IMG/VR virus record: IMGVR_UViG_3300047160_005224
Location: 1 to 32,402 of that record
Reading direction: 5' to 3' (one strand)
Length of the DNA stretch: 32,402 nt
From: a virus
Taxonomy: Duplodnaviria; Heunggongvirae; Uroviricota; Caudoviricetes
In this document: positions 2,799 through 20,809 of the stretch, piece by piece
Numbering within the stretch: the first letter of the stretch is position 1
Layout of the letters: every line of letters begins with the position of its first letter
Notes under the pieces: generated by a model
Databases searched by the model: none
What the model was told of the DNA's origin: nothing
Seen by the model: only the letters and a program-made list of their open reading frames with translations
Translations under genes and position numbers: made by a program

Positions 2799-2820
2799 AG
2801 AATCTCCTGTTGCGGAGGAA

Positions 2821-2861
2821 GAAATGAAAAGAGGGGACACACTAATATAGCATGTCCCCTC
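2821..2861 (-). terminator. Intrinsic terminator-like hairpin whose loop contains an extended -10 (TGCTATATT)
   Basis: 9-bp stem GAGGGGACA/TGTCCCCTC (2831-2839 and 2853-2861) followed by TTTTCATTTC on the minus strand. Confidence 0.6.
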
Positions 2862-6513: not shown

Positions 6514-7449
6514 TCACAAGAACTCCACTTCCGTCATCACCTGCGTCAAGAACGCGACGAGGCAGACTTCGGCGTCAGCAACGAAGTTGATCTTGTACTG
6601 ATAGTCAGCAATCAAGAGAACCAATGCCGGAATGGAACTTGGCTTAACCACTTCAAATGCTTCATCATAGAACTTGCGCATCAAAGATGTTGGCTCAGAA
6701 TCCATGTTCTCGCCAACCCACTTGCGCATTTCCTTCCACTTCTTGGTCTTCACCAGTTCGACAAGACCCTTGAAATTCTCATCATTCATGTTGACAAGAA
6801 TGCCAGAATCGATCGTTCCGGTAGCACTGTAACGCTGAAGCTCATTCAGAACACGGCGCCAGTCAGGGAAGTGCTTCATGATCACAGCAGCAACCACTTT
6901 CTGATCGAACGTCACACTTTCCTGCTCAAGAATCTGAGCAGTTCGCTTCATAAACTGACCAGCGATCTTCGGCTTATCGGCTGCCTGAATCTTGAATTCA
7001 ACCACCGAACAACGTGAATGCAATGGCTGGATAATCTTGTTCTTGAAGTTACAAGTCAAGATGAAGCCACAGTTCTTGGAGAACTCCTCCATGAAGTTAC
7101 GCAAGGATGCCTGCGTCAGAGGAGGCAGATAATCAGCCTCATCCAGAATCACCATCTTGCGTCCACCAGTGAGTGAAACACTGGAAGCGAAATTCATGAT
7201 CTGCGTGCGGAGAGTATCGATGCCGCCGTTCATCGATGAGTTGATGATCATGTAGTCGATACCAAGTTCATCACACATCGCGCGCGCGATCGTAGTCTTG
7301 CCGGTGCCAGCGCCACCAGTGAGCAGAAGGTTTGGAATGTTGTTGTTATCAACAAACTGTTGGAAGGTTTTCTTCAGGTCTTCCGGAAGAATGGTCTCGG
7401 AGACTTTGTGCGGACGGTACTTCTCAACCCAAAGGAAATCATCGTTCAT
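6514..7449 (-). CDS. gp44: Clamp loader large subunit (AAA+ ATPase)
   Basis: LWVEKYRP, GGAGTGKTT (Walker A), ILDEAD (Walker B), LHSRC and HFPDWRR. Confidence 0.97.
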   Translation of the reverse strand: MNDDFLWVEKYRPHKVSETILPEDLKKTFQQFVDNNNIPNLLLTGGAGTGKTTIARAMCDELGIDYMIINSSMNGGIDTLRTQIMNFASSVSLTGGRKMVILDEADYLPPLTQASLRNFMEEFSKNCGFILTCNFKNKIIQPLHSRCSVVEFKIQAADKPKIAGQFMKRTAQILEQESVTFDQKVVAAVIMKHFPDWRRVLNELQRYSATGTIDSGILVNMNDENFKGLVELVKTKKWKEMRKWVGENMDSEPTSLMRKFYDEAFEVVKPSSIPALVLLIADYQYKINFVADAEVCLVAFLTQVMTEVEFL

Positions 7450-7504: not shown

Positions 7505-7702
7505 TCAGACAGACTCAGTCGGTTCTTCAATCACTTCTTCAACGAAGATATCACGATCCGAGTAAACGTGAAGGATGATTCCTTCACCAAAGGTCAGCAC
7601 TTTGACCTCTTCCTTCTTTCTACCTTTCTTCGAAACATAACCGACACGGAGCTTACCAGAAGCTCCAACATCAGTATGTTCTACACGCACAGCAATCGTC
7701 AC
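7505..7702 (-). CDS. Hypothetical protein, 65 aa
   Basis: GTGA overlap with the gp45 stop; ends just before the terminator. Confidence 0.6.
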   Translation of the reverse strand: MTIAVRVEHTDVGASGKLRVGYVSKKGRKKEEVKVLTFGEGIILHVYSDRDIFVEEVIEEPTESV

Positions 7703-8367
7703 TTGTCGTACTTCGAGTTGGTTTCGATCGCGATCCAGTACGTCAAGTCCTGCTTGGAATTCTTGAATTCAGAGATTCCCTTCGCACTGATGGCAACATC
7801 ATAGTCACCAGAAATCAGCTTGAGGTTCTCGGACTTGTAATACAGAGCAAAGGACTTGTCGCTTTCGTGATCGACGGCAATATTGAACTCGTTGGAAGTG
7901 CTTTCCTTAGAGTTGACAGCCGAAATACGAGTCTTGGCAGAACCATCAGAACGTACAGCCACTTCCGGAACCTGTAGAACCGAAGCAGCCTTGAGCAGAG
8001 TTGCGAGCTGGCTGTCGCTGAGGTTGAATTCAACATCACGAGAAGGCAGCTTCGGGACCTTAGTGGTCGTCTTGATCAGAGACGGATCGCTGTAGTAATA
8101 GCGAATCGAGCGATTGCCGCTCGAGATCTTGACGAACTTCTCCTCGAAATCGAAATCAGGATCTTCGAACAGAGAAATCGCACCCAGAAACTGGCCGAGA
8201 TCATAGATCGCGAATGGCGTATCGAATGTCTCAGCGACATTCGCAATAGCCATAATGTTGCCCTGGGCTGAAATAGTCTTGAGTTCAGAACCCGGCTCGA
8301 CAACGATGCTCGAATTGATCGAAGCAAAGTTCTTCAGAACGTTCTGAGTTGCAGCAGAAATCTTCAT
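7699..8367 (-). CDS. gp45: Sliding clamp
   Basis: MKISAATQNVLKNFASINSSI, FAIYDLGQFL, ENLKLISGDYDVAIS and LTYWIAIE. Confidence 0.96.
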   Translation of the reverse strand: MKISAATQNVLKNFASINSSIVVEPGSELKTISAQGNIMAIANVAETFDTPFAIYDLGQFLGAISLFEDPDFDFEEKFVKISSGNRSIRYYYSDPSLIKTTTKVPKLPSRDVEFNLSDSQLATLLKAASVLQVPEVAVRSDGSAKTRISAVNSKESTSNEFNIAVDHESDKSFALYYKSENLKLISGDYDVAISAKGISEFKNSKQDLTYWIAIETNSKYDK

Positions 8368-8464
8368 TGTATAGCACTTCCTCACTTAGACGCCGGGAGA
8401 CTTAGTGTAACGTCTCCAGGCTGACAAACGTAACCAGTAATGTTGACAGTCAGATCAAACGACA

Positions 8465-8701
8465 TCATTCTTCTCCAATCACGGTTTCGTACAGATCACT
8501 GAATTCTTCAGCCGTCGCCTTTTCTTCACTGTAATTTTGCTTGTGAAAGATCTTGGCGAGCTTACGAATTTGCTTCTTTGGAATCTGATGCTCTTCAGCA
8601 GCCTTATCGATGGTCTCCTTCTGATACGTCTTTTCCGCATCACCGCGAGTCATCGAGTTGCTCAGTTCCTTGACAACCTTTGCCAGCTTTTCCTTGTCCA
8701 T
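8465..8701 (-). CDS. dsbA: dsDNA-binding protein, T4 DsbA-like
   Basis: 78 aa; ELSNSMTR...KKQIRKLAKIFHKQNYSEE...LYE pattern. Start overlaps the upstream stop (TAATG). Confidence 0.75.
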   Translation of the reverse strand: MDKEKLAKVVKELSNSMTRGDAEKTYQKETIDKAAEEHQIPKKQIRKLAKIFHKQNYSEEKATAEEFSDLYETVIGEE

Positions 8702-9099
8702 TACTTGCGTGCTCCAGCAGCAATCAAAGTGTTGGCATAATGCGCATTGAGGGACTTGACGTTGCCAGTCCAATTCCAGTTGTCCATGACATATTGCTGG
8801 AAGCGTTGCTGATCCAATTCGATCACGTCATCAACCGAGAATTCCAACATGGTGATAACCGTGTCGTAATCCCGGGTGTGATTCTCCGGAAAACCACCTG
8901 GCAGGTGTGGAATACCACGCCATGGATCCGAACTGACAAACTTGCCGTGCTTGCGCACTTCTTTCAGAGCCTTGGCCAGACCTTCTTCCATCTGAAGCCA
9001 ATAACCCTTGACTGCAAGATCATACTCAGAAGCATGATCTTCGCGATTCTTCTTGAGAGTTTCAAGAAGCTTGAGACGATTAACCTTGATTACATCCAT
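8701..9099 (-). CDS. Conserved-looking phage hypothetical protein
   Basis: GAGG RBS before ATG 9099; KVNR..LLETLKKNR.DH...YD.VITMLE...F.QYVMDNW.W. Confidence 0.75.
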   Translation of the reverse strand: MDVIKVNRLKLLETLKKNREDHASEYDLAVKGYWLQMEEGLAKALKEVRKHGKFVSSDPWRGIPHLPGGFPENHTRDYDTVITMLEFSVDDVIELDQQRFQQYVMDNWNWTGNVKSLNAHYANTLIAAGARK

Positions 9100-9109
9100 T
9101 ACCAAAACC

Positions 9110-9964
9110 TCACTTTTTCTTGATTTTCGAAGGATCGACTGTTGCAGATGCACCGATAGATGCAATAGCAGCAAGCGAACCGCCAAACGTATAGGTGCCT
9201 GTGTGAGTCAACTTCATCCACGGGCACAGGAATGTCTTCAAACCGACCTTGCGTGTCCACTGGCAGAACATGTAGTCTTCTGACAGATAGCGCTTCGTTT
9301 CAGGATCGATGACTGCGTCGAAGAAAGCACAAATTTCGCGCGAACCATCGAAATGTTCTGTGCGAGCATGATCCGGACGATAGAACTGTTGTGGGTATGC
9401 TTCACCAAACTTGACGAGCGTCTCACGACGAATCATCATGAATCCAGTGCCGATCTCCAAAACTTCAGCAGGTTCATCCAGGCGAATTTCCTGGACACCA
9501 TCCTTGAACACCGGAGAGAACACGTAGTCACCGACGAACTGATCCAAATCATTCGGATTCTGATCAGCATATCCCTTGTCTACAGCAGCCTTGATCTTTT
9601 CCCAAGCAATGCACTTCTTGGGATATGGGCCACCGATGATGTCATAAGGTGACTCATCTGACTGCAGAGCCAGAAGAGCAATTACGTCATTCGGGTCGAA
9701 GCCAATGTCGGCATCAATGAACATGAGATGCGTCATTCCAGAGCGCATGAACTCATCGGCAGCGTAGTTGCGTGCACGAGTAATGAGTGATTCATTGAAG
9801 AGATAATAGCAACGCATCTGGATGCCATAGCGCATGCACAGAGCAGTCAGATCTTGCATCGAGCGTGCGAAGGCACCCGTGCACTGGCCACCATACATCG
9901 GTGTTGCTACGAACAGGGACCGCTTCTGTAGGTCCGCAATTTCAACTTTGATTTCCATTCCCAC
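9110..9964 (-). CDS. GT-A fold glycosyltransferase-like protein
   Basis: VATPMYGGQC, ESLITRARN, HLMFIDADIGF (DxD), GTGFMMIRRE and YLSEDYMFC. Confidence 0.85.
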   Translation of the reverse strand: MGMEIKVEIADLQKRSLFVATPMYGGQCTGAFARSMQDLTALCMRYGIQMRCYYLFNESLITRARNYAADEFMRSGMTHLMFIDADIGFDPNDVIALLALQSDESPYDIIGGPYPKKCIAWEKIKAAVDKGYADQNPNDLDQFVGDYVFSPVFKDGVQEIRLDEPAEVLEIGTGFMMIRRETLVKFGEAYPQQFYRPDHARTEHFDGSREICAFFDAVIDPETKRYLSEDYMFCQWTRKVGLKTFLCPWMKLTHTGTYTFGGSLAAIASIGASATVDPSKIKKK

Positions 9965-9965
9965 C

Positions 9966-10280
9966 TCAGTTAACTGGCGTCAGAAGCTTTCCACCACGAC
10001 CTGGCGTGATGATCTTGCGCGTCGCGGAGATGTAGTCGTCGTAGATCGACGGCACAGGATCAACCGGAGCAAATAGCAGGCTTGACGACCAGAGAACCAT
10101 CGAACTTGCTGCTGAGGTGTACGGCATGTATGGTACAAATACTAGCTTGCCTTCACGATGATCAATACCAATACCAAGCACATCGCTCAGAAAATACGCA
10201 CCTTCTTCTTCCTTCTCAACGGTAGCGATAATTTCTTCGCCAATAACGGTCTTAAAGACCTTCACACATACACTCATCAT
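9966..10280 (-). CDS. Hypothetical protein, possibly Sm-like fold as common in T4-like phages
   Basis: KTVIGEEIIA...FVPYMPY...IITP pattern. Confidence 0.7.
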   Translation of the reverse strand: MMSVCVKVFKTVIGEEIIATVEKEEEGAYFLSDVLGIGIDHREGKLVFVPYMPYTSAASSMVLWSSSLLFAPVDPVPSIYDDYISATRKIITPGRGGKLLTPVN

Positions 10281-10819
10281 TACCTCACAAATTGTTTACG
10301 CAAGGATTCAAGTTTCTTGCGTTTTGCCATTTTCTTCAAGGCAAGATTCCTTGCCATAGGACCAGCTAAATCCAGGAAATTCTTGCCTTCCTGATGATCA
10401 AACTCATGTTGGAAGATTCGAGCAGTCATACCCGTGAACGTGTGTGTTACCGTTTCACCATTCGGTTGAGTGAATCGAACCTTGATATTCTTTGGACGTT
10501 TGACTTTCACAAACACGCCAGGGAACGAAAGACATCCCTCATCCAACATCACTTCTTCGTTGCCAACATCAACGATCTTCGGATTGAAACAGACTGTGAT
10601 GGGATTTGTTGCCATAGCAAACACGCGATATGGCAACCCGATCTGGTTTGCAGAAATGCCAACTCCCTTGTACTTGATCAGTGCTTGTGCGAGCAGATGA
10701 GACAACTCAACAGGATCAGTGGGAGGATTAGCAAAATCAAATACGGTGGTGGGATGAGAAAGAATCGAATCACTCTCAGGCACCAGTGCAGGAATTTGGA
10801 GAACGGGTCTATCATTCAT
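10280..10819 (-). CDS. def: Peptide deformylase
   Basis: All three PDF motifs present: GVGISANQIG, EGCLSFPG and QHEFDH. Confidence 0.95.
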   Translation of the reverse strand: MNDRPVLQIPALVPESDSILSHPTTVFDFANPPTDPVELSHLLAQALIKYKGVGISANQIGLPYRVFAMATNPITVCFNPKIVDVGNEEVMLDEGCLSFPGVFVKVKRPKNIKVRFTQPNGETVTHTFTGMTARIFQHEFDHQEGKNFLDLAGPMARNLALKKMAKRKKLESLRKQFVR

Positions 10820-12153
10820 CAGAAAAATTGATCAAGTGTTTGAACCTGCTGCTTTACAGCCTCAGGATGATATTGCTCAAGGAGGGATTGTCCGCCAGCA
10901 TAGGCTGACAGATAGTCATACCATTCTTGCTGTTCGAACATAGACGGAGAAACACCGTTCCATTGCGGACGCCATTCGGGATGGCTTTCGTTCAGACGAC
11001 GGCTTTCTACATAGTCACGGCGCGCAGTTTCGTATTCCCAGCTACCAAGGTCAAGCATCTTTTCGCGAAAATACGCGACGATACTCATGCGTTCGATGCC
11101 TTCTGGATTACCATCTACTGCTTCTATCGGAGTATTGCCATGAATAGCATCGTGGTTAGCAATAAGGAGCAAATCACCAGGACGAATGTTGATAGCAACA
11201 CGATACTCAGGAAGAACGAGATAGCCACCTTTGAAATCCTTGCCAGTTGAGATGACACCAAGATTCGAAAATCCAGAGCCGAGATCGCCTGCGTCAAGGT
11301 GCGCTGCCGTGCGGAATGTCTTGTTCACCGTCAGAGTGGTGAACACCGTGTCCTCACCAACGAGGAAACGCTTGTCCAGGCGATCTGCGGCTGCTTTCTG
11401 GTTAGCAAATCGACCAGGAAGAAGTTTCTCAAAACACTTATTTAGCTTGCGCAGATAAGGAAAGCTTTTGGCAAACAACTCAGGATTTTTCGCATTGTAT
11501 GCGCAAGAGCGTCCATACGGATAGCGTGGATAGCGATCAAAGAAACCTGCCACGCCAGAATTGACTGGGTTGGCATAAGTGGTTTGGCTGATGCAGGTCT
11601 TCGCGTAGTCCCGAGCTACAACCGATCGTTCTTCAGATGGCAGATCAATTACAGACTCAAGCCACCGATCGAAGAAGCCTTCGTATTCTTCTCCGCTCTT
11701 AAGTATCTTGGAGCGAAGCCATACGAGACCGCGCGAGGAGTCCTCTTTGTACGAAGCCTTAGCCTTGATGTGAGCACGAATTGGATCTTGACCATCAAGA
11801 CGTGCAGAAGGCTTCATCAGGATGTCAAGCGCATCCAATTGCCAATCTGTAACCCATTCACGACCTTGCAACTTTTCTCCTTTCGGACCAGCGGCAAGAC
11901 CGCGATTTTGGGTCTCAATTGCTGCACCAATCAGACCTTCATGTACACCTTTCTGATCTGCTGCAGAAAACACACCTTGGCGAAACTTGAAAAGACACAC
12001 GGTCTCATCTGCACCAACTTCGCCATCAAGAGAATTCACACGAGCATAAGCATCAGTGTCAGAATCCACCAGGATGTCGTAATTGGATTGGTCTAGAAAT
12101 TTTCCTAGCAGGTGCGTGCAATCCTGCTTTTCACGAATTAGAGTCTGTACCAT
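10819..12153 (-). CDS. TET/JBP-family 2OG-Fe(II) dioxygenase
   Basis: FTTLTVNKTFRTAAHLDAGD (HxD), GGYLVLPEY, GDLLL..NH..IHGNTPI (distal His) and RMSIVAYFREKM (2OG-binding Arg). Confidence 0.88.
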   Translation of the reverse strand: MVQTLIREKQDCTHLLGKFLDQSNYDILVDSDTDAYARVNSLDGEVGADETVCLFKFRQGVFSAADQKGVHEGLIGAAIETQNRGLAAGPKGEKLQGREWVTDWQLDALDILMKPSARLDGQDPIRAHIKAKASYKEDSSRGLVWLRSKILKSGEEYEGFFDRWLESVIDLPSEERSVVARDYAKTCISQTTYANPVNSGVAGFFDRYPRYPYGRSCAYNAKNPELFAKSFPYLRKLNKCFEKLLPGRFANQKAAADRLDKRFLVGEDTVFTTLTVNKTFRTAAHLDAGDLGSGFSNLGVISTGKDFKGGYLVLPEYRVAINIRPGDLLLIANHDAIHGNTPIEAVDGNPEGIERMSIVAYFREKMLDLGSWEYETARRDYVESRRLNESHPEWRPQWNGVSPSMFEQQEWYDYLSAYAGGQSLLEQYHPEAVKQQVQTLDQFF

Positions 12154-12694
12154 TCAGCTTGTTCTTGATTATGTGAGCAATCCGAGCAGTATCTGCCGGC
12201 GTTTCATGCGTAAACTTTTCCAACACCATCATGACGTTGAAATTGGTCATGATGTTTGCGTACTTGGTTTCGCGTCCACGAATGAACTGTTCGGACTGAT
12301 TAGAACCACGTTCAGCATAACGGGCTTCACGTGTCTTAGGATCAACTTCAAGATAGAGAATCGAAGTGTCGTAATTGTCAAGGCAATGTTCAATGAACGA
12401 AAGATTCGTAAGGCGATCGCCTTCAAACAACACACCTTTAACTCCACGAACACTGCATTCCTTCAGGAATTTGACAGCTTCTGGCTGAACTGCCATACTC
12501 ATACGGTCAGTACCAGCAAAAACTTCGCCATCTTCGTATTTGCCGAGGATGACATAATTCCCAAAAGCATGGAACGGCACTAACTTGATTTGGGTGAACA
12601 TCTGTTTCCATTCACCCATTGTTTTCATCACTTCACGAACCAGTGTGGTTTTTCCAGTTCCAGGTTCGCCCATCACAATAACAACATGCATCAT
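12131..12694 (-). CDS. P-loop kinase resembling phage 5-hydroxymethyluracil DNA kinases
   Basis: GEPGTGKTT, FAGTDRMSMAVQP, FEGDRL and RGSNQSEQFIRGRETK; adjacent to an aGPT-Pplase-like gene. Confidence 0.8.
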   Translation of the reverse strand: MMHVVIVMGEPGTGKTTLVREVMKTMGEWKQMFTQIKLVPFHAFGNYVILGKYEDGEVFAGTDRMSMAVQPEAVKFLKECSVRGVKGVLFEGDRLTNLSFIEHCLDNYDTSILYLEVDPKTREARYAERGSNQSEQFIRGRETKYANIMTNFNVMMVLEKFTHETPADTARIAHIIKNKLNGTDSNS

Positions 12695-13773
12695 GTATCT
12701 CCAAAGAAACTCTCTAGAGGAAGAATTTCCGGTTTCGCATCCGAATACAGATATTCTAACCTCTGAACACCACCAAAGTCAATAAAATGGCTCATTCGTC
12801 CTTCGACAATACGTCCTTGAAGCAGTTCTGGATGTGATTTCAAGATAGGATGTTCAGTCCTAGAATCCCATAGTGGCTTCCAGAAGATACCATCCCAGCC
12901 ATCATTCGCAACAGTACTGATTTCCTCAGCCTGACGATCGAGATAGTATCCAAGATAACGACCATGCTTCACCCTGAAGATCTTCTTGAAGGAACACAAC
13001 GCTGTTTCCATCGTGAAATAATCAACAAGATGAAATGCTTCTGGACGAGTTGTCATAACTCGATCTTTGACTTCATCCAATATCAATTCAGCTTCATTTT
13101 CCATCCACTGATATTCTTCGGACGTCAGCTTCTTGTTAACCCAATCGTCCATGCCAAGAGCTAAGCATAGACCATTACGATGTGAACGAGAACCATTGTA
13201 ATCATCGAGAATGAGATTTGGTGGATCAATGTTCATTCCGCAACACTGCTTCAGTGTCTGAAGATAGAACCAAGTTGTGTATCTACCGAATTTATATAGA
13301 TGATTACTGAGTTCAGCAAACAGAACTTTGAAGTTTTCTTGCGGTGTTCTATCAACCTTTACGAATTTCGCGAAGGCTTCTTCTTGCGCCCCTCCGTTTT
13401 GGAAGACCCATTCTCGATAGGACTTGTATTGGGCTCCGAGGTGACCTTTGTTGTACTTGGTGTCGGTTTGGTATCGGAGTCGCTTGAAGTTGCTAGTGTT
13501 CCACGAATCAATTCGTGCTTGGTCCACGAGCTCAAAATCTGGGAATTCATTCCATATCACCCATGTTGTTGGAAAGTAATAAGTGGTTCCGTACAGCCAG
13601 GAAATCCAAAGCTTCTGTTCGCGATTGTGTTCAAATCGAGAAAACAGATAGTTGGTCATGAAAATAGCAGGATCGCAGTCATCATGATGAATGCTCCAAT
13701 GGAACCATCGGATGAACAGCTCCTTGCGTTCAGAATAGATCGAGTTTTGCGCCACTGGCAACGTTCTCGTCAT
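12691..13773 (-). CDS. Amino acid:DNA transferase (alpha-glutamyl/putrescinyl thymine pyrophosphorylase-like, HhH-glycosylase fold)
   Basis: FGRYTTWFYLQ, GSRSHRNGL, METALCSFKK and RYLGYYLDRQAEEI motifs; next to the P-loop kinase. Confidence 0.8.
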   Translation of the reverse strand: MTRTLPVAQNSIYSERKELFIRWFHWSIHHDDCDPAIFMTNYLFSRFEHNREQKLWISWLYGTTYYFPTTWVIWNEFPDFELVDQARIDSWNTSNFKRLRYQTDTKYNKGHLGAQYKSYREWVFQNGGAQEEAFAKFVKVDRTPQENFKVLFAELSNHLYKFGRYTTWFYLQTLKQCCGMNIDPPNLILDDYNGSRSHRNGLCLALGMDDWVNKKLTSEEYQWMENEAELILDEVKDRVMTTRPEAFHLVDYFTMETALCSFKKIFRVKHGRYLGYYLDRQAEEISTVANDGWDGIFWKPLWDSRTEHPILKSHPELLQGRIVEGRMSHFIDFGGVQRLEYLYSDAKPEILPLESFFGDT

Positions 13774-14509
13774 AGCACTTCTTGAATTGAATGGTCATCT
13801 TCAGACCAATATCGAGCGTCTGATTCTTTCCTGATTCATCCTCACGAACCTTAATGTATCGTGGATGAAGTGATTGAAGTTTGAGCATACTCGCTCGATT
13901 GTTTTCCGCTGTGCGCGTGATGGAGCAACCGCCAGGAGCGTGTGGTTTGTATTCATGCGACACATAATCGCCAGTGTAACGAAGTCGGCGACCGGATTCG
14001 ACAACAGAAATCGGAACATGGAAGTCTGAATAGAACTGAAGAACATCGTATCGAATGTTCTTCTCTTTCATGTAGTCACGATCCATGAAGAAACAGTGAC
14101 TAGGCTTTCCATAGAAATATTCTGGCGGATTCAGATGTGACAGAAATGAATTTGATGTGCCACAATAGACATCGCCTTCTTCCAACCACTTCTCCATGAG
14201 ATCAAGAACTTCGCCACAGTCCTCAAGACGAGTGCGTTTCTTGCGATTCTCTGAATCGATCTTGTAAAACGTCAGATCATCATCAAGCATGCCTACATGT
14301 GATGATTCAGACTGCGTGATGATCCATTGACGTGTCTTACAGATGGATCCGATGCATTCCTTCGGAACATCGACGCGCAATCCATCCCATTGTGGATGGA
14401 CTTCTTCTTTCGGACATACCAGGAACACGCGATCCTTCCAGCATTCCGGAATCCACTTAGTGGTGATCAGCTTGTTTTCACGCCCGAGCGTCGGGATGTA
14501 GACTTGCAT
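13730..14509 (-). CDS. GT-A glycosyltransferase resembling TET-associated glycosyltransferases
   Basis: VYIPTLGR, ICKTRQWI, MLDDDLTF and PGGCS..RT motifs. Confidence 0.75.
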   Translation of the reverse strand: MQVYIPTLGRENKLITTKWIPECWKDRVFLVCPKEEVHPQWDGLRVDVPKECIGSICKTRQWIITQSESSHVGMLDDDLTFYKIDSENRKKRTRLEDCGEVLDLMEKWLEEGDVYCGTSNSFLSHLNPPEYFYGKPSHCFFMDRDYMKEKNIRYDVLQFYSDFHVPISVVESGRRLRYTGDYVSHEYKPHAPGGCSITRTAENNRASMLKLQSLHPRYIKVREDESGKNQTLDIGLKMTIQFKKCYDENVASGAKLDLF

Positions 14510-14925
14510 CAGAGTTCCTTGATATTGTCTTCGATGAGCTGCACAACGTGATCGAAGTATGCATCGTCCTTCGAGAAGTGTGGATCTGGAACATCATCAT
14601 TTTCCAGAAATATCACGCATTTCATCGAGGCATTGAATCCAAATTCAAACATGACTCGTTCGTAATGGATTTGACCCATACAGACGATCACATCAGCCCA
14701 GTCAACCAATTCCTCGGTCAACTTTTTGGATTTGCGTAATGGAACTGCATATCCTTTACGCAGCAGCGCATCACGCATACGCTTGTTTGGAGATTTTCCG
14801 CCAGCAGTCTTTCCAGTTCCTGCGGAATCAATTTCGTAAGACGAAGGCAATCGTTCCTGCGCGATTGCATGCGCGGCATAAGAACGATTCAAATTACCTG
14901 TGCAAAGGTAAAGGATCTTCTTCAT
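14509..14925 (-). CDS. Low-molecular-weight protein tyrosine phosphatase/ArsC-fold protein
   Basis: LYLCTGNLNRS (CX5R), DSAGT, ADVIVCM and DVPDP. Confidence 0.88.
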   Translation of the reverse strand: MKKILYLCTGNLNRSYAAHAIAQERLPSSYEIDSAGTGKTAGGKSPNKRMRDALLRKGYAVPLRKSKKLTEELVDWADVIVCMGQIHYERVMFEFGFNASMKCVIFLENDDVPDPHFSKDDAYFDHVVQLIEDNIKEL

Positions 14926-15848
14926 TCTTCAATCCTACCAGTCTTCTTGTAATGCTCAATTCGACGAGCAATGTCTTTGCGGTTATTGGAATCATGGTTC
15001 GTCAACTGATAACCACATTCCAACTCATAGTTGTATTCCTGGAAATCAGGAAACTTCCATTCGCTTCGCCAGAACAATTCTTTTGGTCGTGCAGATCCAG
15101 TAATCACTGGAGCATTCAGAACGTTATCCAAATAATCACGGCACCAGCGGATGCACGATTCCATCTCAACGAGATCAGTCGTTCCAGGAAAGTGACGGAA
15201 TTCAATCGTCTCCGTTTCTTCCCACATCTGACGCAAATTGATGCCTTCGCGTGGGCTAAAGAACCACATGCGTCCTTTATCTGTCAACGGAGCGTGTTCT
15301 TCATAGAACTCTTGCACCGTCTTAGCAGCAAGAATTGCGTTGGTGCGCGAAGCAGGAAGCATGTATTGGTGTGAGCGTTGACGACGCTTGTAGCGTTTCA
15401 TAGCACCATCGTATGCTTCTTTCGACATCTTTGCAGGATTGGGAACAGGGATGGTCTCGATCACATTGAATGCTTCCTGAGCATGCTCGATGTTGTAACG
15501 CATCAATCTCTTACACATCTCCAGGTCTTGGCTTAGACCGGGAACGCGCACATGGATATGAAGATTACATCTGTAGTTAATGACTGCTGGGTAGCCAGAA
15601 TCAACCAATGCTTGATTGATCTCAGCCACCACCTGCACCTGTTCTTCAACCGTCGAAGTTGGACGCGTGTTGATTTCACCGCCGAACTCCCACAACTTTC
15701 CTTGTGGATCATTTGCGATGCCTGTAGAATTTACAATGGTGTTGTCTTTCGTATTCCACGCGCAACCTTCTGGGAGCGGTGTACCAAATTTCACGTCGGC
15801 GTATTCAAGTTCAACGCCATACGTGAATGTCGAGGGATTATATTTCAT
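14922..15848 (-). CDS. Putative amidoligase (COOH-NH2 ligase, glutamine-synthetase-like fold)
   Basis: TYGVELE, GGEINTRP, CNLHIHV and TIEFRHFPGT. Confidence 0.82.
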   Translation of the reverse strand: MKYNPSTFTYGVELEYADVKFGTPLPEGCAWNTKDNTIVNSTGIANDPQGKLWEFGGEINTRPTSTVEEQVQVVAEINQALVDSGYPAVINYRCNLHIHVRVPGLSQDLEMCKRLMRYNIEHAQEAFNVIETIPVPNPAKMSKEAYDGAMKRYKRRQRSHQYMLPASRTNAILAAKTVQEFYEEHAPLTDKGRMWFFSPREGINLRQMWEETETIEFRHFPGTTDLVEMESCIRWCRDYLDNVLNAPVITGSARPKELFWRSEWKFPDFQEYNYELECGYQLTNHDSNNRKDIARRIEHYKKTGRIEE

Positions 15849-15854
15849 TGAGTC

Positions 15855-16571
15855 TCAGTGTTGGAGATCGTTGTCAGGAAGTCTAATCTGAGTTAAACTC
15901 AAACGCAATGGCTTTTCTTCTAGAGAAACGCTGTAGTTGGCGCACGGTTGACATTCTTTGATTTGAGAAGGAAGACCTGCACCGCTCCTCAAAAGAATGT
16001 CCTTTGTAGAAGCTACTGCGATGTAGTTTTCGGCATAGACGTAATACAACGGGCGTTGTTCATTTCGCCAAAAGGAAACAGTTTCATCAATAGCATCAAG
16101 CACAATGCATGCTTGACTAGACGGAACGATGTTCAGAGGATGCCGTTCTTGTTCATAGACACGTAGCAAGATCTCTGAATCATTCTTGGTGGTGCATTCA
16201 ATTCCATAGGTGTCATTCCAAGTCGATGGATCCGCCTGACTAACGACACCATTGTGAATGAGAGCAATATCAGTCTCATAGTTTGCTAAATTGATTGCGA
16301 CCATCGGCTGATTGTAACTTAGATCAGAAGTCGAATATCGACAATGAACTATCGCCGCACGAACATTGTAACCATAAGCAAGATGTTCTAGTGGAAACAC
16401 ACTTGCAGGCACAGAAAGGACGTTGTGGTCCAAGAAGTTGTTATCATGAAGGACAGCAGCACCCGTGGCATGTTGTCCTCTGATCTGCGCTTCATTTGCC
16501 ATTGCGCGCAAGAGTTCCGTTGGGAAACTCCTGTCATAATTCAAATTGATTAAACCAATTACGCCGCACAT
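15855..16571 (-). CDS. Class II (Ntn) glutamine amidotransferase
   Basis: N-terminal MCGVIG (nucleophilic Cys2), RGQHATG, HCRYST, HNG and NDSE. Confidence 0.92.
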   Translation of the reverse strand: MCGVIGLINLNYDRSFPTELLRAMANEAQIRGQHATGAAVLHDNNFLDHNVLSVPASVFPLEHLAYGYNVRAAIVHCRYSTSDLSYNQPMVAINLANYETDIALIHNGVVSQADPSTWNDTYGIECTTKNDSEILLRVYEQERHPLNIVPSSQACIVLDAIDETVSFWRNEQRPLYYVYAENYIAVASTKDILLRSGAGLPSQIKECQPCANYSVSLEEKPLRLSLTQIRLPDNDLQH

Positions 16572-18289
16572 TATGCTGCCTTTGCCATTACAGAGAAGTC
16601 GTTGTGTTTCTCGAACTTGATCACAGAGTGGAATTTGTCGAACAATTGATCGCCACGGTGACTGATGATAAACAAGTTGGTGTCCTTAGTCAACTCCTCG
16701 ATGATCTTGAGGAATTCTTCAGTACCAGCATGGTCCATCGCACCGTCAAGCACTTCATCCATGATCAACAGATTTGTTGATGCAGAATTACGAAGCTTCG
16801 CAACCGCGCGCCAGGTGAACAAAATTGCCAAATTGATGCGCAGCTTTTCGCCTTCCGAGAAGGACTGATAGCTGAACTCATCACGAAATCGAGATTTGAT
16901 CACTTCGTTGAACTGTTCGTCAAGCTCAAAGTGAACAAAGAAGTCCATCGCAGCGAGATACTTGTTGATCAACTTGTTCATGACTGGAACATACTTCTTG
17001 ATCACAGTCGCCTTGATACCACCATCCTTCAAGATGGAAGCTGCGATAGTCTGAGTAGAAGATTCCTTCACTAGGACTTCGCGCTGCTTTTCCTTCTGTA
17101 CCAACTCATCCTGAAGTTCGAACAATTTCGATGCATCATTGTTCTGTTGTTGAGTTTTCTGCAGCTCTTCAAGCTCAGATTCCAAGGAAACCAGATGCTT
17201 CTTTTCCGCCATCAAGGAAGCCTTGATTGAGGCGAGTTGAGAATTCACGCTGTTGATGCTACGTTGAACTGCAGCAATTTCAACAGCACGATCTTGCGCT
17301 ACTTTGTATTTAGATTCAAGAAGAACCACACCAGACTTGATCTTTTCAATCTCAGCCTGCTTCTCAACGATCGTTGAGTCCTTGAAATCATGGTCGATGC
17401 CTTGTTTACAAGAAGGACAGGTATCGTTGTTATGATAGAACAACACTTCCTTATCAAGACGCTGAATACGATCCTGAACCTTTTCTCGCATGCCCTGGAG
17501 TTTGTTAATCAACTCAGAGACTTCAGAAGCATCATCAATCGAATTGATGAGGTCAGACAAATCAGCCTGACGGTGAACTCCATCTTCATTCAGTGAATCA
17601 ATGGAATGATTCGCTTGTGAAATCTTCAACTGTCGATCTGCAATAAGCGCCTTCGTATCACGATTCAGGGTCTCAATCAAGGACTCCTGCATTGTGATTC
17701 GCTCTTTCACCAAATCAATTTGGTACTTGACATCGGATTGCGCTTCCTTGTTTTGCTGAATACGGTCCTTCAACAAGCCATTCATCACGGAGAACACCTG
17801 AATATCCAGGAGGTCTTCAATAACTTCTCGGCGTGAATACGCAGAAAGCTGCATGAATGGAACGTAGGTTGCCGAACCGAGCACGACAACCTGACAGAAG
17901 GAGCGATGATTCAGTTTCAAGACGTTCTTTTCCAGATACTCCTGATAGTCCCTTGAAGAAGCATCCTGATTCAGAAGTACATCATCCTTGTACACCTCAA
18001 AGATCGCTGGACGCATTCCACGCCGAACGATGTACTCTGAACCACCAACATTGAATTTCACTTCAACAACGCAGTTCTTTCCGTTGATAGAATTGATCAA
18101 CTGTGGTTTGTTGATTTTGCGAAATGGCTTGTTGTAGAGCGCGAAACATAGCGCATCAAGGATGGTGGATTTACCAGCACCATTCATACCAACGATGAGA
18201 GTCGATCGGTGGCGATCTAGCTGAATTTCGGTTGGATGATTTCCAGTTGACAGAAAGTTCTGCCAACTGACAGATTTGAAGTGGATCAA
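16571..18289 (-). CDS. gp46: Recombination endonuclease ATPase subunit (Rad50/SbcC-like)
   Basis: NFLSTGN, GMNGAGKST, CPSC zinc hook, FSEGEK and MDEVLDG. Confidence 0.97.
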   Translation of the reverse strand: MIHFKSVSWQNFLSTGNHPTEIQLDRHRSTLIVGMNGAGKSTILDALCFALYNKPFRKINKPQLINSINGKNCVVEVKFNVGGSEYIVRRGMRPAIFEVYKDDVLLNQDASSRDYQEYLEKNVLKLNHRSFCQVVVLGSATYVPFMQLSAYSRREVIEDLLDIQVFSVMNGLLKDRIQQNKEAQSDVKYQIDLVKERITMQESLIETLNRDTKALIADRQLKISQANHSIDSLNEDGVHRQADLSDLINSIDDASEVSELINKLQGMREKVQDRIQRLDKEVLFYHNNDTCPSCKQGIDHDFKDSTIVEKQAEIEKIKSGVVLLESKYKVAQDRAVEIAAVQRSINSVNSQLASIKASLMAEKKHLVSLESELEELQKTQQQNNDASKLFELQDELVQKEKQREVLVKESSTQTIAASILKDGGIKATVIKKYVPVMNKLINKYLAAMDFFVHFELDEQFNEVIKSRFRDEFSYQSFSEGEKLRINLAILFTWRAVAKLRNSASTNLLIMDEVLDGAMDHAGTEEFLKIIEELTKDTNLFIISHRGDQLFDKFHSVIKFEKHNDFSVMAKAA

Positions 18290-18513
18290 CTAGATTTTCC
18301 TAGAAAGGGACCATGTTCCTTGATATAAGAAACAACTGCATCCATCAATTCGTTGCCAATCGCACTATGCGATTCAGATCTAATATCAATGGAGTTTGCA
18401 TTGTATTCCTGAAGGAATTCCAAAGTCAGACTCAAAGTGAAATTCAAATGTAACTTCGGTTGGTAAGTTACTTCATTCACAGTAAATTCGTGAGATTTGA
18501 TTTCAATCGTCAT
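18286..18513 (-). CDS. Hypothetical protein between gp47 and gp46
   Basis: 4-nt overlaps with both neighbours. Confidence 0.6.
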   Translation of the reverse strand: MTIEIKSHEFTVNEVTYQPKLHLNFTLSLTLEFLQEYNANSIDIRSESHSAIGNELMDAVVSYIKEHGPFLGKSS

Positions 18514-19598
18514 TGTGTCGTCGAATCCATTGTTAGTGCCTCATTATACAGAGATGTCAACAAAGCATCAAGCTCTGCCGCCTGCGAGGCATTATCGTTT
18601 ACATACGATGAAGCAAATTTGCGCATGATAGTGAGTGTATCTTCAGCTTCACTAATGATGCTATCGGCGTCTTCGAAATCAAGTGTCAGTCGATCATCAA
18701 TAACCTTGAGATCTACAACACCGAGTTTCTCAATTCGTTCAACAAGAAGATCGAACCAATATGGATTGGTCTTATTATGCACGACCAACTTCACATAACA
18801 ATCCTTTACATGATCAATCGGCATGTTCAGGATGTCATCCAGCGTGAAATTGGAATCGTTGTAGACAATCTTGTGGAACAAATTGAACGGGTTCTTTACG
18901 AACGTCAACTCGCGCGTATCAGTATCGAACACATGGAAGCCGCGAGGATCGTCGTAGTCTGACCAAGTCATCTCATATGGAGCACCGAGATAATTGATGT
19001 TACCACGAGTTGATTTGTGATGGAAGTGACCAGAACAGACAACTTCAAAACGCGAGAAGATGTCAGGAGAGTAGCCATGTTCAGTTGGCGAACCCTTGTA
19101 CATCTCGAAACCAGCAACCTCCAGGTGACCGAACAAGCACTGAGCATCAGTGTTGTTGATCATAGCCATGGCGTCAGAGAAGTTGTCGGCGCAAATCCAA
19201 GGCATCATGACGATCTTGGTTCCATCCAACACTTCTTCAGTTGGATCTTGGTACCACTTGAACTTGTCATATGAATGTCCGCGGAACAAAACGTCCATGG
19301 AATTCACTTCGTTCGTGTTTTTGTAGAAGGTGTCGTGATTGCCTACGATAACACCAACATCAAGGTCACGATCTCTACATGGATCGATGAAGTTCATGCG
19401 CATGTTTCGCGCTGTCACATAGTTGATGTACTTGCGACGATCAACAATGTCGCCCAGATGGCGCACATACTTGATGTCATGTTCATCGATGTAAGGGAAG
19501 AACACTTCACGATAGAACTTGGCCTGATGCGCCGCGATGATTTGATTATCATCACGAACGCCCCAGTGAGTGTCTGTAATCAGCGCAACCTTAGCCAT
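18510..19598 (-). CDS. gp47: Recombination endonuclease nuclease subunit (Mre11/SbcD-like)
   Basis: ITDTHWG, HLGDIVDRRK, GNHD, GHLE and SGHFH. Confidence 0.96.
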   Translation of the reverse strand: MAKVALITDTHWGVRDDNQIIAAHQAKFYREVFFPYIDEHDIKYVRHLGDIVDRRKYINYVTARNMRMNFIDPCRDRDLDVGVIVGNHDTFYKNTNEVNSMDVLFRGHSYDKFKWYQDPTEEVLDGTKIVMMPWICADNFSDAMAMINNTDAQCLFGHLEVAGFEMYKGSPTEHGYSPDIFSRFEVVCSGHFHHKSTRGNINYLGAPYEMTWSDYDDPRGFHVFDTDTRELTFVKNPFNLFHKIVYNDSNFTLDDILNMPIDHVKDCYVKLVVHNKTNPYWFDLLVERIEKLGVVDLKVIDDRLTLDFEDADSIISEAEDTLTIMRKFASSYVNDNASQAAELDALLTSLYNEALTMDSTTQ

Positions 19599-20244
19599 CG
19601 AGATTGTCCGGTTCTGGAATGACTTCCAGCTCAGCATCCAACTCCGGATCTTCTACTGTCGGCTCGATGAACTTCTCAACACCGCGCTTTTTCTTTTCGC
19701 GCTTGGCTTTCGCCGTCTTTTCCTTTGCTTCGAAGTTCTTGATGAACTCCTGCATAAATTCATTTTCAGGATTGACTTCAATGCCGAAGTCTTCGCTTAC
19801 GTCATGGTCAGAAATTTCTGCCAGACCTTCCTGAATCATGTTCTGCTTCACTTTGTATTTCGTGTACGTGTGTACCTTCTCGCGGTGAATTCTCCGCAAG
19901 AAAGCAAAGTAGACGATTTGGGTGAAGTAAGAAAAGGGCTTGCCTTTCTCAGGATCGAAGTTGTATGCATAGAGCAGGCAGTTCTCGATCCCATCAGAGA
20001 TCATTTCCTCGATGTACCAATATTTGTTGAGGAAGTTCTTGTGGCGAGCTAAACGCTGCGCGATCTGGAGAATACACTTGCCTGCATATTCCGGGAGACG
20101 GGGTTCCGGAAGACCATTTGATTTCGTATGGTCATACTTCGTTTTGTACTCAACCATCGCAGCCATGAACTTCTCTGGATCGATGTAATAGTTGGACGGT
20201 AGAGTTGGTGAAATCGGGTCTTTAACCCGAGATGAATCTGACAT
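19591..20244 (-). CDS. gp55: Late-transcription sigma factor
   Basis: EEMISDGIENCLLY..NFDPEK..PFSYFTQIVYFAFLRRI.REK. Start at 20244 lies downstream of a candidate promoter. Confidence 0.95.
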   Translation of the reverse strand: MSDSSRVKDPISPTLPSNYYIDPEKFMAAMVEYKTKYDHTKSNGLPEPRLPEYAGKCILQIAQRLARHKNFLNKYWYIEEMISDGIENCLLYAYNFDPEKGKPFSYFTQIVYFAFLRRIHREKVHTYTKYKVKQNMIQEGLAEISDHDVSEDFGIEVNPENEFMQEFIKNFEAKEKTAKAKREKKKRGVEKFIEPTVEDPELDAELEVIPEPDNLDG

Positions 20245-20274
20245 CAAATACCCTGTTCCACGAATTTCCAGCGA

Positions 20275-20304
20275 ATCATAAGTGTTTTCAGGTACCAAAG
20301 TCAA
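20275..20304 (-). promoter_or_regulatory. Sigma70-like promoter for gp55
   Basis: TTGACT, 18 nt, TATGAT on the minus strand. Confidence 0.55.
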
Positions 20305-20330
20305 CGTCAAACTAACAGTCATCAGTAATC

Positions 20331-20359
20331 TTGACTTTGGCTCAATCGCTCGCTATAAT
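20331..20359 (+). promoter_or_regulatory. Near-consensus sigma70 promoter oriented antisense to the uvsW unit
   Basis: TTGACT (20331-20336), 17 nt, TATAAT (20354-20359). Confidence 0.7.
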
Positions 20360-20395
20360 CACCAAGTGTCGCGGTGAGTGAAGTAATGCCAACAG

Positions 20396-20809
20396 TTAGT
20401 TGATAAGCTTCGACGGAGGAACTAAGGACGACAAATCCGAAGGAGAATCGTCCAAAGACTCAGCTGATGGATCCTTGGCATATGACAACATAGAATCCTC
20501 AAGCTGATTGAAAGCCTTCACCGGGAGGTTCTTCCTCCATTCGATGTAGTAACGAATCAGCTTCTGCTTTGGTGTAGCAACAGCATAGATGTTGTTCTTA
20601 TGGAACACTACCTCATCGTCTTCTGCAAAGTGCATGAATTTCGATGCATTGACGTAGACGTCTCCATCACCAGCGTCTTGGAAACTGAAGACCAAAGGAG
20701 ACTTGACCTTCAGTTCGATCTGGCTTTCACTAAGAACCTCAGCAATGATAAAAGGAGAACCACCAGCCAACTTGAACAACAAGTACAACGGCTCGTGTGT
20801 TTCTTCCAT
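20396..20809 (-). CDS. Hypothetical protein downstream of uvsW (possibly Sm-like)
   Basis: Overlaps the uvsW stop, GGAG RBS; FKLAGG..IIAEV pattern. Confidence 0.7.
   Translation of the reverse strand: MEETHEPLYLLFKLAGGSPFIIAEVLSESQIELKVKSPLVFSFQDAGDGDVYVNASKFMHFAEDDEVVFHKNNIYAVATPKQKLIRYYIEWRKNLPVKAFNQLEDSMLSYAKDPSAESLDDSPSDLSSLVPPSKLIN

Follow-up and report, generated by a model that had tools for sequence, protein, structure and literature searches.

A predicted thymidine hypermodification cluster of a T4-like phage, with a phosphatase and a glycosyltransferase among its tailoring genes

Hypermodified phage DNA withstands restriction and CRISPR nucleases, and the pathways that produce it yield enzymes for DNA chemistry and for sequencing. 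The characterized pathways that combine a kinase with an amino acid:DNA transferase (AADT) use 5-hydroxymethyluracil (5hmU) in DNA (PMC8989533), and in the phages M6, ViI, PaMx11, PhiW-14, and SP10 this base is pool-derived via a ThyA-type hydroxymethylase. In metavirome contigs, TET_JBP replaces the hydroxymethylase and lies beside 5-hydroxymethyldeoxyuridine (5-hmdU) DNA kinase (5-HMUDK), aGPT-Pplase2, amidoligase, and glutamine amidotransferase (GATase) domains (Lee et al. 2021, PMC8989533); Lee et al. proposed that TET_JBP generates 5hmU in DNA. Phage TET-family enzymes without a C5-methyltransferase were later shown experimentally to be post-replicative T-dioxygenases, and one clade of these 5mYOX enzymes, C1, is "consistently linked" with GATases, P-loop kinases, and AADTs; glycosyltransferases (GTs) occurred in 31% of neighborhoods (O'Toole et al. 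2026, PMC13229309). Here, we analyzed a seven-gene cluster of this kind, running from a GATase to a TET/JBP-family dioxygenase, in the stretch of 32,402 nucleotides that forms positions 1–32,402 of the IMG/VR virus record IMGVR_UViG_3300047160_005224 (Caudoviricetes). This whole stretch is called the window.

We propose that the seven genes encode a pathway by which a T4-like phage hypermodifies thymidine after replication, a reading to which we give a probability of roughly two in three. In the proposed scheme, the TET/JBP-type dioxygenase would hydroxylate thymine of newly made DNA to 5hmU, a small P-loop kinase would phosphorylate the 5hmU hydroxyl, and the transferase, through Cys260 and Glu256, would swap the phosphate for a nitrogen nucleophile. 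These three steps rest on family membership, intact motifs, and genome context, and the later ones we infer. The amidotransferase may give glutamine-derived ammonia as the nucleophile, which would yield 5-aminomethyldeoxyuridine (5-aminomethyl-dU); a free amino acid is the alternative. The amidoligase would then make an amide with a carboxylic or amino acid, a step in which GNAT acetyltransferases seem to replace it in sister clusters that have the amidotransferase alone. The phosphatase may strip phosphate from sites left unused by the transferase (5-phosphomethyl-dU to 5hmU) or from the side chain, and the glycosyltransferase may cap a free hydroxyl, that of 5hmU or of the side chain, with a sugar. 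The purpose is presumably to protect the phage DNA from host nucleases.

The window is the start of the complete record of a T4-like phage, which is 166,771 bp long and has direct terminal repeats of 97 bp. Its genes include gp43, regA-side genes, gp44, gp45, dsbA, gp46, and gp47. An earlier, sequence-only reading of the window had described a run of seven overlapping or abutting genes inserted between gp46 and the clamp genes. This description was borne out: minus-strand open reading frames (ORFs) occupy 10819–16571, all are intact, each carries the domain claimed for it with a Pfam score above the curated cut-off, and the intergenic distances range from +6 to −44 nt. Translationally coupled in this way, the seven genes form an unbroken run from gp46 to peptide deformylase in the transcription order GATase, Amidoligase_2, low-molecular-weight (LMW) phosphatase, TET-associated glycosyltransferase (TAGT), ADDT, Ploopntkinase3 kinase, and Tet_JBP dioxygenase. 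The clamp genes gp45 and gp44 lie downstream, with peptide deformylase, two unnamed genes, and dsbA intervening. All catalytic motifs were intact in the window copies and conserved among homologues. None of 50,697 phage records matched the cluster in a megablast search; it has no close cultured relative.

Table 1. Positions in the window of the cluster genes, their C-terminal tails, and neighboring replication genes.
Feature	Position	Strand	Remarks
Stand-alone class II (Ntn) glutamine amidotransferase, 238 aa	15855–16571	−	Pfam GATase_6 42 bits, E 1e-10
Amidoligase_2 / glutamine-synthetase-like (ATP-dependent carboxylate-amine ligase), 308 aa	14922–15848	−	PF12224 25.4 bits (cut-off 22)
Low-molecular-weight Cys phosphatase, 138 aa	14509–14925	−	Pfam LMWPc 72 bits, E 7e-20; overlaps both neighbors
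TAGT (GT-A like), 259 aa	13730–14509	−	PF20691 33.1 bits (cut-off 27.5); PHROG 842 E 8e-29
Amino acid:DNA transferase (AADT/ADDT, formerly aGPT-Pplase2), 360 aa	12691–13773	−	Pfam ADDT PF18724 86.7 bits (cut-off 26.2), E 3e-24
Transferase tail PLESFFGDT	12694–12720	−	
Small P-loop kinase, 187 aa, presumed 5hmU-DNA kinase	12131–12694	−	Pfam Ploopntkinase3 35.6 bits
TET/JBP-family (5mYOX) dioxygenase, 444 aa	10819–12153	−	Pfam Tet_JBP 72.6 bits (cut-off 34.9), residues 221–364
Dioxygenase tail TLDQFF	10822–10839	−	L440, F443, F444 invariant or nearly so
gp46	16571–18289	−	Upstream flank of cluster
Peptide deformylase	10280–10819		Downstream flank of cluster
dsbA	8465–8773		
gp45 sliding clamp	7699–8385	−	Pfam gp45-slide_C E 2e-12
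gp44	6514–7449		
gp43 DNA polymerase, residues 1–794	1–2382	−	Pfam DNA_pol_B and exonuclease domain

The sequence-only reading had taken a dioxygenase that feeds a kinase and a transferase to be undescribed; this arrangement is already published (Lee et al. 2021, O'Toole et al. 2026). The window shares with the TET_JBP and 5mYOX C1 clusters of uncultured phages a dioxygenase that takes the place of the dUMP hydroxymethylase, with no accompanying C5-methyltransferase, and an adjoining P-loop kinase, AADT, glutamine amidotransferase, and amidoligase. It differs from them in having no detectable ParB, in its 444-aa dioxygenase with a conserved C-terminal extension and tail, in the LMW phosphatase and TAGT between amidoligase and transferase, and in its fixed site in a T4-like replication module; the likeness is one of gene content. 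The kind of cluster is thus known, and what appears to be new is the phosphatase plus GT in the tailoring slot, together with a ParB-less dioxygenase clade of 444 aa that holds a constant place in the T4-like replication module and, on several of the proteins, C-terminal tails that resemble that of the phage polymerase.

With M6, ViI, PaMx11, PhiW-14, and SP10, the window has in common the kinase-then-transferase logic, the Cys and Glu of the transferase, and tailoring genes within the cluster. PaMx11 acetylates a 5-aminomethyl-dU intermediate (PMC8989533), which resembles the route proposed for the window and is paralleled by the GNAT route of its sister clusters. Unlike the window, these five phages use pool-derived 5hmU and kinases with the HMUDK helical domain, and they tailor the base with pyridoxal-phosphate, radical S-adenosylmethionine, flavin adenine dinucleotide, and acetyltransferase enzymes, whereas the window has amidoligase, GATase, phosphatase, and GT. 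Kinetoplastid base J (JBP1/2 and JGT) and the phage glycosylation of 5-hydroxymethylcytosine (5hmC) by TET and GT (PMC8256090) likewise start with a dioxygenase that makes a hydroxymethyl pyrimidine, which a GT may cap, and this logic is also that of Stenotrophomonas phage DLP6 and many IMG/VR contigs, which have only TET, TAGT, and sugar-nucleotide genes. In the window, by contrast, the GT shares the dioxygenase with the kinase/transferase route, and neither a C5-methyltransferase nor a J-binding domain accompanies it. The window is a compact, complete seven-gene version of the T-dioxygenase/kinase/AADT/GATase/amidoligase class, and its comparison with relatives yields testable hypotheses.

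The dioxygenase retained the residues expected for catalysis: H285 and D287 (HxD), H338, and R355, corresponding to the iron triad and the 2-oxoglutarate Arg, were invariant among 31 homologues. An AlphaFold2 model built from the 31 homologues (pLDDT 82.5) was compared with known structures using VIA-align. Human TET2 gave a Z of 20.4 over 265 residues (root-mean-square deviation 4.0) and NgTET1 of Naegleria a Z of 19.2, with AlkB and FTO lower at 12–15. Since the TET2 and NgTET1 alignments span model residues 1 to ~387, the N-terminal half belongs to the TET fold and carries insertions, which led us to discard a fused ParB or other domain as the identity of the first 220 residues. ParB (PF02195) was not detectable with Pfam at E ≤ 0.1 in this genome or in those of DLP6, C48C1, and Cr30, while a control search detected it in 11 of the 14 reference genomes. 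Judged from its sequence, the window dioxygenase is what O'Toole et al. (2026) would class as a ParB-less enzyme. Its closest cultured relatives are in DLP6 (67% identity), phage C48C1 (49%), and Caulobacter phage Cr30 (46%), and IMG/VR holds 58 full-length relatives, which lie on T4-like contigs.

Whether the dioxygenase would act on thymine or on 5-methylcytosine (5mC) had been left open by the sequence-only reading, which had noted that neither a C5-methyltransferase nor a dUMP hydroxymethylase gene is visible in the window. This absence holds beyond the window, across the complete 166.8-kb genome: we found no C5-cytosine methyltransferase (PF00145; the control search was positive in nine of 14 reference genomes) and no member of the ThyA family (PF00303), which includes dUMP and dCMP hydroxymethylases. 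The search of the whole genome that the earlier reading had called for did turn up a gene for dCMP deaminase and one for a divergent ThyX, whose motif reads THRLFSRNAASSR. The ThyX gene (genome positions 162481–163482, minus strand) encodes a long protein of 333 aa that scored 52.5 bits with TIGR02170 against a cut-off of 87.9, and its signature begins THR rather than RHR. Since both enzymes are encoded, the phage would make dTMP and its DNA should contain thymine. With no C5-methyltransferase or ThyA in the genome, and dCMP deaminase and ThyX present, JBP-like thymine hydroxylation is the likely entry step. Of the two bases, thymine in DNA is thus the likely substrate, and the 5mC half of the claim became unlikely.

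The kinase has a Walker A motif, GEPGTGKT, and matched the P-loop part of the HMUDK of phage Simon with 29% identity over ~100 aa. The HMUDK families PF18748 and PF18723, which include the helical domain, were not among its Pfam matches at E ≤ 0.01. The call of a P-loop kinase in the earlier reading thus stands, and membership in the characterized 5-hmdU DNA kinase family does not; the kinase may represent a different P-loop family with the same job as 5-HMUDK. In two sister loci (our handles L054 and L055), TET is followed by the kinase alone, and ADDT is lacking within the locus. The end product there could be phosphorylated 5hmU, or the transferase could be encoded elsewhere.

The transferase is single-copy in the genome. 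Its motif METxLCSFKK contains C260, invariant among 17 sequences, and E256, present in at least 90% of them. Aligned over 309 aa with orf187 of phage PP35 (Ackermannviridae, Limestonevirus), the protein showed 28% identity, and its Glu and Cys matched those of orf187. A conserved Cys and a nearby Glu are essential in M6 gp51 and ViI gp247 (Lee et al. 2021, PMC8989533).

The amidotransferase gene starts within the gp46 stop codon, overlapping it by 1 nt, and its product has no fused synthase domain. The N-terminal domains of purF and asnB were the top NCBIfam matches. The protein starts with MCG, and C2, R31-G32, R78, N107-G108, and D131 were invariant among 18 homologues; they include the Cys nucleophile at the N-terminus (C2) and the Arg, Asn-Gly, and Asp that bind glutamine (R78, N107-G108, and D131). 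Its role does not depend on the amidoligase, because amidoligase-free clusters, in which it occurs with GNAT, transferase, and kinase, keep it (L036, L045–L049, L052/L053, and L069); the simplest reading of its presence is that it may supply ammonia to the transferase. The protein ends in a D-L-Q motif of its own (15855–15866, minus strand; D235 and Q237 invariant) that does not resemble the polymerase-like tail and may serve to dock a different partner.

In the amidoligase, E13, E15, E58, H97, H99, R200, E216, and R218 were invariant, consistent with the acidic and His ligands of the glutamine synthetase/GCS2 superfamily. Its AlphaFold2 model had a pLDDT of 88, and the top 50 Foldseek matches were all YbdK, glutamine synthetase, gamma-glutamylcysteine synthetase, or PafA, with a best E value of 1.5e-3. 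Prediction of a complex between amidoligase and amidotransferase scored 0.00 in both runs, which counts neither for nor against binding. There are more than 1271 metagenomic relatives of the amidoligase (E ≤ 1e-5), so the broader module of GATase, amidoligase, transferase, and kinase is common. In Vibrio phage 2.275.O (L085, MG592671.1, 332–337 kb), a homologue with 29% identity adjoins 7-deazaguanine genes, its neighbors being QueF-like, a queuosine biosynthesis protein, GTP cyclohydrolase I, and a "nucleophile aminohydrolase"; a pair of amidoligase and Ntn hydrolase may also serve purine modification.

The phosphatase, whose best NCBIfam matches were Etp and Wzb, kept the catalytic residues of its family: C8-X5-R14-S15 and D114-P115 were invariant among 12 sequences that included bacterial LMW protein tyrosine phosphatases (LMW-PTPs). 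The phage proteins differ from the bacterial ones at two sites. Their loop reads CxGN(L/I)NRS (CTGNLNRS or CHGNINRS), with Asn in place of the second P-loop Cys of the bacterial CxGNICRS, and they have DP(H/A)F rather than DPYY or DPYF. Because the second Cys and the DPYY pocket are absent, the substrate may be other than phosphotyrosine. The gene is found at the identical cluster position in L018 and L074–L077.

The only other phage context found for this phosphatase was phage Simon (PQ683277.1, L084, unannotated), whose 61-kb genome encodes a family A polymerase. In Simon, the amidoligase (42% identical), a phosphatase with the CxGNxNRS loop, and an HMUDK with the helical domain (PF18748/PF18723) are consecutive, within a gene set of ADDT, an unknown ORF, amidoligase, LMWPc, HMUDK, Nmad5, ThyA-like, and family A polymerase. 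Simon and the window are alike in that the amidoligase is followed directly by the LMW phosphatase and then by a kinase, with ADDT nearby. They are unlike in that 5hmU in Simon would be pool-derived via the ThyA-like enzyme, in the polymerase, and in that no TET, recognizable GATase, or recognizable GT was found in the 19 kb of Simon examined. Since the Simon copy adjoins an amidoligase and a 5-hmdU kinase, the phosphatase is not simply part of a sugar branch and appears tied to the phosphate/amide route no less than to the GT. The HAD phosphatase beside TAGT in DLP6-type clusters had suggested, by analogy, that the window phosphatase is an obligate partner of the GT; the Simon run, which has no recognizable GT, weakened this idea.

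The TAGT has a DxD-type motif, DDD at 86–88, and was 58–84% identical across the other seven-gene loci. Its identity to the GT of the sugar-only DLP6-type clusters was 22%, on which a recent exchange of a GT module with those clusters was rejected.

To compare partner sets, neighboring ORFs of TET loci were clustered and the clusters named with Pfam. Most of the 58 TET relatives lie at the gp46-to-deformylase locus and some after gp41, and their partners vary among six sets. Set A, the DLP6 type, has a cytidylyltransferase-like protein, TAGT, a HAD_PNKP phosphatase, and NTP_transferase; set B a cytidylyltransferase-like protein and GT1; and set C TAGT alone. Set D has GATase and amidoligase, then a ~430-aa unknown protein or GNAT, then ADDT and kinase. 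Set E comprises GATase, GNAT, ADDT, and kinase, with the amidoligase absent, and set F, that of the window, GATase, amidoligase, LMW phosphatase, TAGT, ADDT, and kinase. The earlier reading had called the cluster composite, with both downstream routes around one dioxygenase. The cluster does carry one dioxygenase alongside a kinase/transferase set plus a glycosyltransferase, and sister phages with an orthologous dioxygenase have sugar-only or amide-only sets at the same locus. On gene content, the window cluster is of the D type, with the phosphatase and GT in its variable slot.

The order of set F recurred in at least five other metagenomic T4-like phages: L018, the JGI contigs L074 and L075, L076 (a Logan contig and an ENA contig), and the 160,890-bp JGI contig L077. 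Across these loci, the six tailoring proteins were 35–87% and TET 62–83% identical to those of the window. In L077, the identities were 35–36% for the phosphatase, 58% for the GT, 58% for the amidoligase, and 62% for the dioxygenase; because the order survives such divergence, the seven-gene arrangement appears to be under selection as a unit.

Other occupants of the locus were also noted. In D-type clusters, the slot of the phosphatase and GT can hold a protein of 421–486 aa (cluster c24; L063:5397–6857 and eight relatives) that had no Pfam or NCBIfam match and no polymerase-like tail. At the same place, DLP6 (L002, KU682439.2, 24.0–28.5 kb) encodes TAGT, a phosphatase of the HAD_PNKP type, an NTP_transferase-like protein of 563 aa, and TET; ADDT is absent from its genome, and its locus yielded no counterpart of the cytidylyltransferase-like gene seen in the metagenomic loci of set A. 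The DLP6 paper labeled the 563-aa protein an ADP-ribosyltransferase, and the dioxygenase is annotated as "SNF2 DNA repair protein". In Cr30 (L003, KF301602.1, ~51.8–60.7 kb), TET, an ADDT of 409 aa, and a TAGT of 308 aa occur with a myo-inositol-1-phosphate synthase, and a P-loop kinase follows a few genes on; all but the synthase are annotated as hypothetical or "SNF2 DNA repair protein". This set hints at an inositol-related or sugar-bearing thymine, and no report of a DNA modification in Cr30 was found in the literature searched. Both DLP6, which has the sugar-only set, and Cr30, which has transferase, GT, and inositol-phosphate synthase, are cultured relatives open to direct nucleoside analysis.

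Several of the DNA-directed enzymes end in the same way as the phage DNA polymerase. The gp43 gene wraps the ends of the record, with its last 45 codons at genome positions 166537–166674, and the full protein of 839 aa ends SLSDFFG. The dioxygenase and transferase carry the tails listed in Table 1, that of the dioxygenase coming after a variable linker and with low pLDDT at the end; the window TAGT ends AKLDLF, a partial tail that fails the strict pattern used below. Polymerase tails of relatives read TLDSFFA, DLSSLFD, TLEDFFG, and SLEDFFG, and the common form (S/T)L(E/D)xFF was seen on TET, transferase, GTs, and GNATs across 65 loci. In Cr30, LF takes the place of FF in the polymerase (DLSSLFD), the GT (DLSKLF), and the dioxygenase (ATLF) alike.

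The pattern L[DES]x[FL][FLMW]x{0,3}$ was run on all distinct proteins of the 65 loci. It matched TET (39/45), ADDT (18/25), GNAT (7/9), TAGT (5/7 and 8/8 in two clusters), GT1 (2/2), and gp43 (6/6), as well as both copies of an unknown protein sited between TET and ADDT. No match occurred in the kinase (0/25), GATase (0/20), amidoligase (0/13), phosphatase (0/2), deformylase (0/25), or gp46 (0/26), nor in gp47, gp45, gp44, nucleotidyltransferase, or HAD phosphatase. Among the other proteins of the loci, one of 284 matched, and this was a transferase fragment. In this genome, the pattern was found in four of 263 ORFs (TET, ADDT, gp43, and a 61-aa ORF); shuffled C-termini gave a mean of 0.385 matches, and four were reached in one of 1000 shuffles. 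A T4_baseplate (PF12322) protein (genome positions 70899–71612, plus strand; L009:899–1612) ends GLQDFFG, a near-copy of SLSDFFG, which could reflect coincidence or a further role of the motif.

In T4, gp43, gp55, and gp33 have C-termini of similar hydrophobic and acidic character, which can replace one another as epitopes for gp45 binding (Geiduschek and Kassavetis 2010, PMC2988020). Because the DNA-base enzymes share the tail form of gp43, and given this precedent, we propose that they ride the clamp: the tailed enzymes are probably tethered to the sliding clamp gp45 and active close behind the fork. Like the T4 epitopes, the window tails are short acidic and hydrophobic C-termini after a variable linker; unlike them, they are on DNA base-modifying enzymes, and they are known here from sequence. 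No report of clamp tails on phage base-modifying enzymes was found in a limited full-text literature search. If the tails do bind gp45, this would account for the ability of post-replicative enzymes to match the speed of T4-type replication, and the tethering of base modifiers by polymerase-like tails would be a new principle in phage DNA hypermodification. The fullest form of our proposal is a clamp-tethered assembly line in which the products would be a novel amide-linked 5-aminomethyl-dU plus either a glycosylated form of it or a separate glycosylated 5hmU, and in which the phosphatase would edit the kinase-activated intermediate. We put this form forward tentatively, as a possibility rather than an expectation.

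The later steps could be connected in other ways. In a single linear pathway, the phosphatase would expose a hydroxyl on the side chain and the GT would glycosylate that side chain, giving a doubly decorated thymine. The genes for amidoligase, phosphatase, and GT are consecutive and overlapping, in an order kept at 35–87% identity, and the 22% identity between the window GT and those of the sugar-only clusters implies that its acceptor may differ from theirs. We nevertheless find this arrangement doubtful, as the amidoligase-phosphatase-kinase run of Simon has no recognizable GT and TAGT relatives in clusters free of kinase and transferase can use only 5hmU as acceptor.

Another possibility is that the amidotransferase, amidoligase, and phosphatase build or trim a small-molecule donor, such as an amino acid amide, a gamma-glutamyl amine, or a dephosphorylated phospho-amine, which the transferase would install on 5-phosphomethyl-dU in one step, on the model of PhiW-14 gp109 with free putrescine. 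AADTs accept free amines and amino acids (PMC8989533). The polymerase-like tail is missing from these three proteins (all 20 GATases, 13 amidoligases, and two phosphatases), although the kinase, which is expected to act on DNA, is tail-less too. The amidoligase homologue beside an Ntn hydrolase in the 7-deazaguanine precursor cluster of Vibrio phage 2.275.O fits such a role; the GNAT-type clusters, with an amidotransferase and no amidoligase, do not, and the window cluster has no transporter or other small-molecule enzyme. We regard a preassembled donor as unlikely.

It is improbable that TET, kinase, transferase, and GT alone modify the DNA and that the phosphatase, and perhaps the amidoligase and amidotransferase, are host-takeover or metabolic genes carried along as passengers in the operon. 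LMW-PTPs usually act on proteins, and the best matches of the phosphatase, Etp and Wzb, would suit such a role. Against it, the cluster positions are fixed, with overlapping codons, in phages down to 36% identity; the phosphatase recurs beside amidoligase and 5-hmdU kinase in the unrelated 61-kb Simon; its derived active-site loop is restricted to these phage phosphatases; and amidoligase and amidotransferase domains have already been noted in T-hypermodification clusters in the literature. Very improbable is a dioxygenase that targets 5mC from a host or unrecognized phage methyltransferase, with the later enzymes decorating 5hmC: clade A and B phage TETs oxidize 5mC, Burke et al. (2021) weighed phosphorylation of 5hmC by P-loop kinases in some contigs, and TET folds are uninformative on substrate, but PF00145 is absent from the complete genome (with the positive control given above), the phage has its own dTMP route, AADTs have been characterized in published work solely on 5hmU-derived substrates, and a C5-methyltransferase co-occurs in only 6% of 5mYOX pathways, 5hmU being inferred for the rest (O'Toole et al.).

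Several points weigh against thymidine hypermodification by the seven enzymes as proposed here. Thymine oxidation by the window TET is predicted from genome context, and several clade C and D phage TETs were inactive in E. coli (Burke et al. 2021, PMC8256090). The kinase is, by its domain match, a Ploopntkinase3 protein outside the characterized 5-HMUDK family and without the helical domain, and Foldseek support for the amidoligase fold is weak (best E 1.5e-3). Modification of the virion DNA is predicted from the genes alone, and the step order, nucleophile, acyl donor, and sugar acceptor are all inferred. For the tails, the pattern was drawn up once the tails of the polymerase and the enzymes were known, which makes the enrichment partly post hoc; gp55 failed as a positive control, the motif not being at the very C-terminus in this phage group; and, besides the failure of AKLDLF in the window TAGT, its relatives in other seven-gene loci end RLSFD. 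Moreover, since the tail-less kinase must act on DNA, the absence of a tail cannot separate DNA-acting from small-molecule enzymes.

The surroundings of the cluster were also surveyed. A promoter and terminator scan of 8000–21000 gave counts no better than chance; the sequence TTGACT-17-TATCAT at 16693–16665, within the end of gp46, is at most a possible promoter. The best-conserved gene of the neighborhood was orf284 (9110–9964, minus strand), with a mean column identity of 72% and with 92–93% where TET had 84%. It carries a FIDSDIGF motif, one phage record names a homologue "dpG-synthase-like", and its neighbor cluster in the Atlas (one of 30 rows, score 0.98; Anp1 on 32% of members) is a nucleotide-diphospho-sugar transferase. 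A profile search of orf284 against the PDB gave no match. These features suggest that orf284 is probably a GT-A glycosyltransferase. That it is a hidden ParB was rejected on the FIDSD motif, on the Atlas proximity to nucleotide-diphospho-sugar transferases, and on the presence of homologues in the records of Sinorhizobium phages phiM12, phiN3, and phiM19, all of which are absent from the TET tblastn matches. Two genes of the nucleotide pyrophosphohydrolase type lie near the polymerase: one (2379–2840, minus strand) is dGTP_diPhyd_N (PF18909) and overlaps the gp43 start, and the other (3750–4361, minus strand) is PRA-PH/MazG-like. In the sister phages L054, L057, L058, and L060–L064, a MazG-like gene lies immediately upstream of the dioxygenase.

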